A model generated the notes under the pieces. That model saw only the letters and a list, made by a program, of their open reading frames with translations, searched no databases and was not told the DNA's origin. From a virus (taxonomy: Duplodnaviria; Heunggongvirae; Uroviricota; Caudoviricetes): DNA of 19,108 nt. The translations under genes were made by a program, and so were the position numbers. Shown here piece by piece: positions 16,228 to 19,108 of the stretch. The DNA lies in IMG/VR virus record IMGVR_UViG_2534681697_000017, positions 1 to 19,108 of that record. The stretch is one strand, 5' to 3'. Every line of letters starts with the position of its first letter. The first letter of the stretch is position 1.

Positions 16228-17174
16228 TGGATGAAGTGATTTTTACTTATAACGAAGAATCAGCACTGACCGCCGGACAAGGTGGTTTTATTACCGAAAC
16301 GGGTGCGCATATCATTAACATCACCGAAGCAGAACTCAAGCAATCAGAAAAAGGTGCCCGATTCATTGAGTTTTCTGGAGAATCCGACGACGGACGGAAA
16401 ATCCAATATCTCAGTGTTTGTGTTCAGAAGAATGACGGCACTGAAAATAAATTTGGGGCGAGCATTATTCACGCCATGATGGGATGCACAGGAATTGGGC
16501 AGTTAACGCAACATATGGTTTCCGTCAGTGAATCAAAACAAATATCTGAATGCTATGTGGCGCAAAGGAGGCAAACAGTGAGCGAAATTGACTATCAGGC
16601 ACTGCGTGAAAAGGCAGAGAAAGCAACGTGGGGTGTGTGGTCGCTCGAATATGGAGAGGAGAAACTTGATGCTGATGATGCGCTAATTCACCGTGAAGTT
16701 GTTGGATATCTTCCTATTTGCAGAATTGAAGGAGCGCATCCTGAAAGCGGTTTCGATGAAGATTTCCAAATGGAACAGCAGGCCAATGCTGAATTCATCG
16801 CCGCAGCCAATCCGGCTACTGTGCTGACACTGCTGAGCGAGCTGGAAACAGCAAAAAAGCGCATAGCAGAACTGGAAGCCAAACCTGTAAGCCAGACTTA
16901 CAAGTTGAATGAGATGTCGGGCAACTCTCCGGTAATTCCGGATGGTTGGATAAGCTGTAGTGATCGAATGCCTGAAAAGGGCCAGAACGTACTTATTTCG
17001 GTGAATTTCGATAGCTCTCTGGTTGAACCGCTAATATGCTCCGCACGCTATACCGGAGGTACATTCCGGCGTGGAGATGTAACGGTTAAGCCAGGTAATG
17101 GTATTGAACAGGCAACCCACTGGATAGACTGGCCCCCTGAATCTCCAGACAACCAGTATCACTTAAATAAGTGA
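16227..17174 (+). CDS. Ead/Ea22-like protein with C-terminal DUF551-like domain; last ~15 codons and stop supplied by the IS2 terminus
   Basis: [22 protein letters not shown] is Ea22-like; the C-terminal ...ATHW resembles the DUF551 end. The reading frame continues into the IS2 left inverted repeat ([16 protein letters not shown]). Confidence 0.6.
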
Positions 17175-17357
17175 TAGTCTTAATACTAGTTTTTAGACTA
17201 GTCATTGGAGAACAGATGATTGATGTCTTAGGGCCGGAGAAACGCAGACGGCGTACCACACAGGAAAAGATCGCAATTGTTCAGCAGAGCTTTGAACCGG
17301 GGATGACGGTCTCCCTGAACCGCCCCGGGTTTCCTGGAGAGTGTTTTATCTGTGAAC

Positions 17358-18244
17358 TCAGGCTGCCAGATCATCGTTTCCGATGGAAGCATAATAATCT
17401 TTTTCTGCTTCTGCCGGAGGAGTATGGCCCAGCCTTTCCAGCAATCGTCGATTGTTATACCAGTCCACCCACGTGAGTGTGGCCAGTTCCACTTCTGCAC
17501 GGTTTTTCCAGCTCTTACGGTGTATTACCTCCGCTTTGTAAAGACCATTGATGCTCTCCGCCATCGCGTTGTCATACGAGTCGCCTGTACTTCCTGTTGA
17601 TGCCAGTAATCCGGCTTCCTTAAGCCGCTGTGTGTAGGCCAGCGATACATACTGAGAACCTTTATCACTGTGATGAACCGTGCCGGACGGTCGACGGGCC
17701 CATAACGCCTGCTCCAGTGCATCCAGCACGAATGTCGTTTCCATGGACGATGAGACCCGCCACCCCACGATGTATCCGGCAAACACATCAATGATGAACG
17801 CCACATAGACGAAGCCCTGCCATGTGCTGACGTAAGTAAAATCAGCCACCCACAGCTGGTCAGGTCGTTCTGCCACGAACTGACGGTTTACGCGGTCGCC
17901 TGCGGCAACGGCTTTCCGGCTGATGGTCGTACGGACCTTTTTACCCCGGAGAACACCGGCAAGTCCCATAACCGCCATGAGACGTGCCACAGTGCATCTG
18001 GCCACTCTGATACCTTCCCGTAACAACTGACGCCAGACTTTACACCGTATACCTTGTGATTTTCATCGTATACGCGCTGTATCTCTTTCTTCAGCCAGTC
18101 ATCGCGCTGCGCACGGGCACTGCGTTTATCCGGATGATGTCGCTGTTGCTGACAGTGGTAATACGTTGACGGGGCAATATGCAGTTCGCTGCATAGCAGT
18201 CCGACCCCGTACTGCTCACGCAGCTTATCCAGCAGTGGCATCAT
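17358..18244 (-). pseudogene. IS629 OrfB (DDE transposase), frameshifted near 18040-18045
   Basis: N-terminal part 17888-18244 and the rve-domain part 17358-18026 are in different frames; the junction reads GGTGTAAAGTCTGG. Confidence 0.75.
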
Positions 18245-18567
18245 TTTTTCCAGAGGCGGTCGAACTCCGCCTTCGCAAAATAAGCGGAAGCCTGGCGAAG
18301 GATATCGTTACTGCGGCGCAGTTCACGATTTTCACGCTCCAGCTCTTTCAGACGCTGACGTTCAGCGGTGGTGAGCCCTCCATCACCGCCCCCGGTATCC
18401 CGCTCATGCTGGCGAACCCAGACACGCAGAGTCTCCGGCGTACAGCCAATCTTTGGAGCAATGGAACAAATTGTCGCCCATTGTGAGTCATATTCGCCCT
18501 GACTTTCCAGAACCATACGGACTGCCCGTTGACGGACTTCGGGGGAAAAACGAGTATTTTTAGTCAT
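18241..18567 (-). CDS. IS629 OrfA
   Basis: 108-aa [42 protein letters not shown]... recognised from memory. Confidence 0.9.
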
Positions 18568-18847
18568 CCTGTTTACCTCTTTCTCAGGAAGTTTAGTCTC
18601 CAGGATTCCCGGGGCGGTTCACCCTCGTTGCCCGGCAACATGGTGTAGCAGCCAGCCAGTTATTTCTCTGGCGTAAGCAATACCAGGAAGGAAGTCTTAC
18701 TGCTGTGGCCGCCGGAGAACAGGTTGTTCCTGCCTCTGAACTTGCTGCCGCCATGAAGCAGATTAAAGAACTCCAGCGCCTGCTCGGCAAGAAAACGATG
18801 GAAAATGAACTCCTCAAAGAAGCCGTTGAATATGGACGGGCAAAAAA

Positions 18848-19108
18848 GTGGATAGCGCACGCGCCCTTATTGCCCGGGGATGGGGAGTAAGCTTAGTCAG
18901 CCGTTGTCTCCGGGTGTCGCGTGCGCAGTTGCACGTCATTCTCAGACGAACCGATGACTGGATGGATGGCCGCCGCAGTCGTCACACTGATGATACGGAT
19001 GTGCTTCTCCGTATACACCATGTTATCGGAGAGCTGCCCACGTATGGTTATCGTCGGGTATGGGCGCTGCTTCGCAGACAGGCAGAACTTGATGGTATGC
19101 CTGCGATC
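18848..19108 (+). CDS. insD: IS2 OrfB (InsD), 5' portion; 3' end outside window
   Basis: GTG 18848 then [45 protein letters not shown]... recognised as InsD; the frame is open to the window end. Confidence 0.8.

Follow-up and report, generated by a model that had tools for sequence, protein, structure and literature searches.

At the right-hand end of the 19,108-nucleotide (nt) stretch of phage DNA analysed here (IMG/VR virus record IMGVR_UViG_2534681697_000017, positions 1 to 19,108; Caudoviricetes; hereafter, the window), one insertion sequence (IS) lies inside another. An IS2 element interrupts a prophage gene, and an IS629 element, in the opposite orientation, interrupts the first gene of IS2. 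Both levels of nesting are simple transpositions, and each element has duplicated its target over the canonical length (IS2, 5 bp; IS629, 3 bp). The IS629 copy carries a 4-bp deletion that breaks its transposase gene, orfB, and that is found also in IS629 copies of Shigella and enteroinvasive Escherichia coli (EIEC). We estimate at about 90% the probability that the arrangement arose by two sequential, ordinary transpositions of IS3-family elements in a degraded lambdoid prophage, the second being that of an already-deleted IS629 that would have used transposase supplied in trans.

Structure of the nested insertions

The features of the region are as follows, in window coordinates and with the strand where one applies.

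16227-17124 (+): Ead/Ea22-like and DUF551 prophage gene, the target of IS2 (Pfam matches Ead_Ea22 and DUF551)
17120-17124: left CTGGA, 5-bp target-site duplication of IS2 (its right counterpart is beyond the window, at 13539-13543 of the extended locus L006, described below)
17125-17315 (+): IS2 nt 1-191, with left inverted repeat TAGACTGGCCCCC..., InsC start codon at 17216 and InsC codons 1-33 (100% match to IS2 nt 1-192)
17313-17315: left CCC, the 3-bp IS629 target duplication (IS2 nt 189-191)
17316-18621 (-): IS629, 4-bp-deletion variant, 1306 bp, recognized by identity to known copies
17316-17340: IS629 terminal inverted repeat, orfB-distal end (inverted repeat I1)
17358-18043 (-): orfB C-terminal fragment, DDE/rve core, in the third frame (Pfam rve and rve_3; IS3 profile positions 159-369, 250.7 bits)
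18043-18044 (-): junction of the 4-bp deletion, reading GGT GTA AAG TCT in the upstream orfB frame
18044-18244 (-): orfB N-terminal fragment, HTH_21 region (residues 4-69 match IS3 profile positions 93-153)
18170-18286 (-): intact ALIL pseudoknot, the stimulator of programmed -1 frameshifting in the IS3 family (Rfam RF01497, 115.7 bits against a gathering threshold of 50, full model 1-117)
18241-18567 (-): IS629 orfA, intact, 108 amino acids (aa), HTH_Tnp_1 (this very protein occurs in 15,163 indexed blocks of the public collection)
18597-18621: IS629 terminal inverted repeat, orfA-proximal end (inverted repeat I1)
18622-18624: right CCC, the 3-bp IS629 target duplication
18625-19108 (+): IS2 nt 192-675, the remainder of orfA and the start of orfB

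The IS2 sequence GTCTCCC ends at position 17315, IS629 opens with TGAACCGCCCC at 17316 and closes with ...GGGGCGGTTCA at 18621, and IS2 then resumes with CCCTCGTTGCC. Written as one string, with slashes at the left (17315/17316) and right (18621/18622) junctions, the region is ...GGGATGACGGTCTCCC/TGAACCGCCCC...GGGGCGGTTCA/CCCTCGTTGCC. The insert is on the minus strand, inverted relative to IS2, and a repeat finder marked its termini as inverted repeats of 25 nt that are 92% complementary. The point of entry is after IS2 nt 191, where it cuts InsC (OrfA) at codon 33-34; the IS2 of E. coli CP131_Sichuan is uninterrupted across this site.

An earlier, sequence-only reading of the window had placed a 1306-bp IS629 at 17316-18621 inside IS2 orfA, with a 3-bp CCC target duplication, and had interpreted it as a direct transposition rather than a recombination product. 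These borders are correct to the base. Of the 121 positions in the NCBIfam profile "IS2 repressor TnpA", the chimeric 86-aa open reading frame (ORF) at 17216-17476 matches only 1-34, which bears out the placement in orfA. The duplication is likewise supported, because CCC stands at both borders of IS629 (17313-17315 and 18622-18624) and native IS2 has a single CCC at this point. Direct transposition is borne out by the duplication together with the exact reconstitution of IS2 when the insert is removed.

To the right of the insert are the A AAA AAG frameshift site of IS2 (near 18842), the start of its orfB (18848) and the stop codon of its orfA (18888-18890). IS2 continues for approximately 656 bp past the end of the window. 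The sequence beyond was obtained by searching for exact matches to the phage protein truncated by IS2, and a single contig matched, chromosome CP026875.1 (GCA_002950355.1, 5.16 Mb); in the resulting locus, L006, the window coordinate equals the L006 coordinate plus 6226. We infer that this is the chromosome of Shigella boydii ATCC 35964, because the next accession, CP026876.1, is labelled as that strain's plasmid. An origin of the window in an S. boydii chromosome would explain why its flank was not found in any complete RefSeq E. coli genome.

When IS629 and one CCC are removed from the extended locus, an IS2 of exactly 1331 bp results. It has the ends expected of an element of that length (TAGACTGGCCCCC... 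and ...GGGGCAAATCCA), an intact InsC (121 aa) and an intact InsD (OrfB, 301 aa), and it is 99.85% identical to an independent IS2. The OrfB in L006 matches the NCBIfam profile "IS2 transposase TnpB" over positions 1-301 of 301 (727.6 bits, against a cut-off of 597).

The sequence-only reading had proposed, as a check, that the right end of IS2 be inspected for a duplication of positions 17120-17124. That end lies at L006 13538 (...GGGGCAAATCCA), 2,640 bp after the IS2 start, and is followed by CTGGA, which matches. The interrupted gene has roughly its last 14 codons displaced past IS2, and its ORF now reads to 17174 within IS2. With IS2 and one CTGGA excised, the gene regains a DUF551-type C-terminus, ...ATHWMPLPEPPQEVK followed by the stop codon, in gapless alignment to the uninterrupted prophage gene of E. 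coli F690. At that empty site, the left flank overlaps the right one by exactly 5 bases, and the 5-mer is present as a single copy. The two duplications and the exact reconstitution of both IS2 and the phage gene therefore indicate simple transposition at each level. Because the duplications are nested, they also fix the order of events: IS2 first, IS629 second.

The four-base deletion in IS629 orfB

In alignments with 1310-bp copies, the window IS629 has one 4-bp gap, at element nt 579-582, which corresponds to the point between window positions 18043 and 18044. The deletion is within GGTGTAAAGTCTGG, the minus-strand reading of 18031-18044, and the alignment thus confirms an earlier suggestion that orfB is frameshifted at this sequence by the loss of approximately 4 bp from an element of approximately 1310 bp. 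The intact sequence GGTGTGCGTAAAG has become GGTGTAAAG; because a GT repeat flanks the deletion, the four lost bases may equally be given as GTGC, TGCG or GCGT.

Three ORFs of IS629, of 108, 118 and 222 aa, match positions 1-86, 93-153 and 159-369, respectively, of the 369-position NCBIfam IS3-transposase profile. This tiling indicates one transposase, broken at a single point, the deletion. The 118-aa ORF (17888-18244) begins at the normal orfB start, 18244, and runs out of frame past the deletion to 17888, and the C-terminal fragment of orfB is listed as the 222-aa ORF at 17358-18026. The overlap of orfA and orfB in the -1 frame and the frameshift stimulator are both present. A continuous OrfB of approximately 296 aa with a DDE/rve core is not present, being split into the 118- and 222-aa parts. 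The window copy is a defective member of the IS629 family, not a representative of a different family. It has three private single-nucleotide polymorphisms (SNPs), which in OrfB correspond to P16L, V191V and A284D.

The deletion is present in all 12 Shigella/EIEC copies and in none of the eight E. coli copies of a 20-copy alignment. We also searched with a 70-bp probe that spans the deletion junction, with a match threshold of at least 99% identity. In total, 114 plasmid records match, and those listed include plasmids of S. flexneri, S. sonnei, S. boydii and S. dysenteriae, pCP301 and the M90T virulence plasmid among them. By the same probe, the deletion is present in only 16 of 5,458 E. coli records with the IS629 segment; the 14 of these that are listed are pINV-sized plasmids or companion chromosomes, and one is explicitly labelled pINV. 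Full-length 1306-bp copies, 99.7-99.8% identical, occur on EIEC chromosomes and pINV plasmids. This distribution points to inheritance rather than to a recurrent hotspot. On the sequences compared, the deletion is a marker of the Shigella/EIEC lineage of IS629 and not private decay of the window copy.

The sequence-only reading was therefore right that orfB is frameshifted, but its view of the frameshift as a lesion of this copy itself does not stand, given the shared deletion in the 12 Shigella/EIEC copies and the 114 plasmid records. It had named reference IS629 sequences with the same orfB arrangement as evidence that would count against it; the Shigella references (pCP301) have this arrangement, and the 1310-bp E. 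coli copies do not. Rump et al. 2011 describe subtypes of IS629 and truncations of other kinds; the passages available to us make no mention of the 4-bp deletion. For annotators, the practical consequence is that a 1306-bp IS629 should be treated as a shared Shigella/EIEC allele, not as decay of individual copies.

Deleted copies with perfect 3-bp duplications of their own are found at five loci: the window (CCC), L003 (TGC), L013 (CAC), L014 (CTA) and L015 (GCG). Among other full-length IS629 copies whose flanks were read, 9 of 19 have a 3-bp duplication. The ends of IS629 are identical across the full-length copies compared, with a difference of one base at one end in the copy at locus L010. 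The orfB substitutions private to deleted copies comprise 14 nonsynonymous and 7 synonymous changes (the random expectation is 24% synonymous) and include radical changes; this near-random pattern fits dead genes under neutral decay. A frameshifted lineage with fresh-looking duplications raises the question of whether it spreads by trans-mobilization, gene conversion or leaky translational correction.

Other IS629 copies on the S. boydii plasmid CP026876.1 show further rearrangement. At 115468-118060, a deleted IS629 is interrupted by an insert of approximately 1.27 kb, which is flanked by a repeat of approximately 9-10 bp of IS629 sequence, GATACCGGGG; this repeat indicates another nested insertion, in the plasmid of S. 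boydii ATCC 35964. No target duplications flank the other three IS629 copies on the plasmid (1306, 1303 and 1306 bp), as would fit recombination between copies.

Possible routes to a deleted IS629 in IS2

The sequence shows two steps: a complete 1331-bp IS2 inserted into the 3' end of the Ead/Ea22-DUF551 gene, duplicating CTGGA, and IS629 then entered this IS2 after nt 191, in the reverse orientation, duplicating CCC. In the history that we favour, the arriving IS629 would already have had the 4-bp orfB deletion typical of Shigella/EIEC. Elements of the IS3 family transpose by a copy-out-paste-in mechanism through a circular intermediate, and they need the OrfAB fusion that is made by programmed -1 frameshifting (bioRxiv 10.1101/2023.06.07.543989). 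Because the deletion parts the DNA-binding N-terminus from the DDE core, a deleted IS629 should be non-autonomous, and its copy-out-paste-in insertion would presumably have used IS629 transposase from another copy in the same cell. Two routes are possible: insertion of an already-defective element by transposase acting in trans, or later gene conversion of a copy that was intact when it inserted. The former is the simplest reading. A non-autonomous IS mobilized in trans is expected to leave copies that share one lesion, lie at independent loci and have individual target duplications, and this is what the five loci exhibit. For excision, IS629 transposase has been documented to act in trans on a disabled copy of the element (Kusumoto 2011, as summarised in bioRxiv 10.1101/2023.06.07.543989).

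The sequence-only reading had taken both elements to be probably transposition-defective. IS2 has no intact InsC and IS629 no intact OrfB, and to this extent the view holds. The cut in InsC at codon 33-34 leaves IS2 without its repressor and, by established IS2 biology, without the OrfAB fusion transposase, although its own OrfB is intact. Immobility is another matter: both elements are predicted to be non-autonomous but keep intact ends, and they could be mobilized in trans or serve as substrates for recombination.

Several points weigh against insertion of an already-deleted IS629. Transposases of the IS3 family generally prefer to act in cis, and mobilization in trans is therefore inefficient. 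An intact IS629 was sought on the plasmid of the same strain, CP026876.1, and none was found; all four copies there that span the site are deleted. Finally, SNPs that flank the deletion on either side, at nt 81, 231, 808, 857 and 887, are common to some deleted copies and to intact lineages, and at these positions deleted copies from different hosts match different intact E. coli lineages.

Such shared polymorphisms indicate that recombination or gene conversion among IS629 copies occurs and could have brought the deletion in after insertion. An intact 1310-bp IS629 would then have inserted by means of its own transposase, and the 4 bp would have been lost later by gene conversion from a deleted copy, of which the same strain's plasmid offers several as donors. 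However, the window copy has no mosaic tract, since apart from its three private SNPs it equals the consensus of the deletion variant, and the five deleted copies with duplications of their own would each require a separate conversion. We regard later conversion as possible but unlikely.

Another possibility is that IS629 entered IS2 elsewhere and that the 2,640-bp IS2::IS629 composite then transposed into the prophage gene, with IS2 transposase acting in trans. Both ends of IS2 are intact, its 5-bp duplication is perfect, and plasmid CP026876.1 also holds one intact 1331-bp IS2, a possible source of the transposase. Yet a second copy of the IS2/IS629 junction was found nowhere in the collections searched, and transposition as a composite requires one more event in trans than do sequential insertions. 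It seems to us improbable.

The deleted IS629 of Shigella/EIEC might instead be attenuated but still autonomous, if corrective -1 frameshifting restored the reading frame. The junction, GGU GUA AAG UCU, places an A_AAG tetramer exactly at the lesion (window 18037-18040, minus strand). As we read the sequence, a -1 slip of tRNA-Lys from AAG to AAA would give AAA GUC UGG, in the correct DDE frame, and the predicted product would be OrfAB lacking one arginine (VKVW in place of VRKVW). Among -1 tetramers in E. coli, A_AAG is the one most prone to shift, and frameshift mutations close to it can be compensated in this way (Atkins et al. 2016, PMC5009743; PMC10861913). If correction at a low level does occur, it could explain how a frameshifted element made several insertions, with duplications of their own, across Shigella lineages. 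However, tetramers that lack a stimulator shift at approximately 0.15%, compared with a background of 0.11%, and A_AAG reaches 5.6% only with an IS3 pseudoknot (Sharma et al. 2014, PMC4066793). Moreover, the RNA downstream of A_AAG, taken as 61 or 117 nt, folds no more stably than its shuffled versions (z = +1.02 and -0.48, respectively). The near-background rate of unstimulated tetramers, the lack of excess structure in the downstream RNA and the neutral-looking substitution pattern argue against corrective frameshifting, which we consider very doubtful.

Still less plausible is the view, implicit in the sequence-only reading, that the deletion arose in situ by independent decay after insertion. 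Its position in a short GT...GT repeat (GGTGTGCGTAAAG to GGTGTAAAG) could favour slippage, but the same 4 bp are missing from all 12 Shigella/EIEC copies, from none of the eight E. coli copies and from only 16 of 5,458 E. coli records. Although many pINV copies of IS629 lack target duplications, so that recombination between copies must be common, a recombination product or an assembly artefact can be set aside as an explanation of the nesting, because the duplications are perfect at both levels, IS2 and the phage gene reconstitute base-perfectly, and the deletion is outside any homopolymer and appears also in the independently deposited pCP301 record AF386526.1.

Related insertions and the host prophage

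The pCP301 copy of S. flexneri (SF_p0039, "IS629 ORF2", and SF_p0040, "IS629 ORF1") is 99.0% identical over 1306 bp and has the same 4-bp deletion, the same 108-aa ORF1 and 222-aa ORF2, and the same terminal repeats. It differs in having no target duplication, whereas the window copy has CCC, a setting within IS2 and three private SNPs. Compared with the 1306-bp EIEC copies, the window element is 99.8% identical over its full length. The 1310-bp IS629 copies of E. coli (for example, in CE10 and CP131_Sichuan) are 99.2-99.3% identical and have the same ends, the ALIL pseudoknot and a 3-bp target duplication. However, they keep GTGC at nt 579-582 and a continuous 296-aa OrfB, both of which are missing from the window copy; RefSeq annotates them as a single "IS3 family transposase, programmed frameshift". 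Records annotated as IS1203 match a combined IS2 and IS629 query at only approximately 97%. ISfinder classes elements as isoforms when they have high nucleotide identity to named copies, and the window element has such identity to IS629. The IS2 is like canonical IS2 (IS3 family, 1331 bp, 5-bp duplication), except for its interruption after nt 191.

A nesting of the same kind exists elsewhere. In E. coli CP131_Sichuan (locus L001, NZ_CP053720.1 2704026-2706669), IS629 is in IS2, which is in istA of IS21, with duplications AAA for IS629 and GTATC for IS2. The same IS21::IS2::IS629 arrangement is annotated in five other listed E. coli genomes. It differs from that of the window in its insertion point in IS2 (approximately nt 361), its intact 1310-bp IS629 and its host locus; by this comparison, the two nestings are independent events.

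The nesting in the window is private to its genome within the collections searched. With 100-bp queries, the contiguous IS2/IS629 junction was absent from 5,426 complete E. coli genomes and 72,556 plasmids, in which the only matches were in two non-contiguous pieces. An exact scan with a 30-mer of the junction found none in GTDB species representatives and none in JGI metagenomes. An exact look-up of the chimeric 86-aa ORF found no second place in the protein index, either in this genome or in another, although copies without the private SNP at 17398 would be missed by it. Shigella is well known both for IS2 expansion and for ISs nested within ISs (Hawkey et al. 2020, PMC7373316). Neither the elements nor the mechanism is new, and the structure is real but ordinary for Shigella. 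Its importance beyond annotation is small, and the junction can serve as a strain-specific marker.

The prophage that carries these insertions has only approximately 93% identity to E. coli and Shiga toxin (Stx) prophages, over at most 60% of its length, and it is degraded in further ways besides IS2 and IS629. Two IS600 copies in inverted orientation are located at 284-796 and 2416-3679. The second is complete (1264 bp, with orfA at 2480-2782 and orfB at 2818-3636); the first is truncated to approximately 510 bp and is 100% identical to it. The ends bearing the left inverted repeat (IRL) are both bordered by CAG, and the complete copy lacks a matching duplication at its other end, a pattern that could be the trace of an IS600-mediated inversion or deletion. 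These copies are just beyond the lysis cassette, which consists of Rz (4084-4563), lysozyme (4548-5021) and holin (5046-5339). Because IS600 follows directly upon the cassette, the late region of the prophage appears to be truncated.

The prophage has two further features of note. Rfam models for isrK (61.6 bits) and C4 antisense RNA (78.6 bits) match within 12815-13003 on the plus strand, a segment that immediately precedes a Phage_ASH/pRha antirepressor-like gene and overlaps its start. Together with that gene, these RNAs look like a P1/P7-type antisense immunity module in a lambdoid prophage. A HicA/HicB toxin-antitoxin pair is present in the prophage immunity region at 11561-12150 on the minus strand (L006 5335-5924), where it adjoins a Peptidase_S24 repressor gene.

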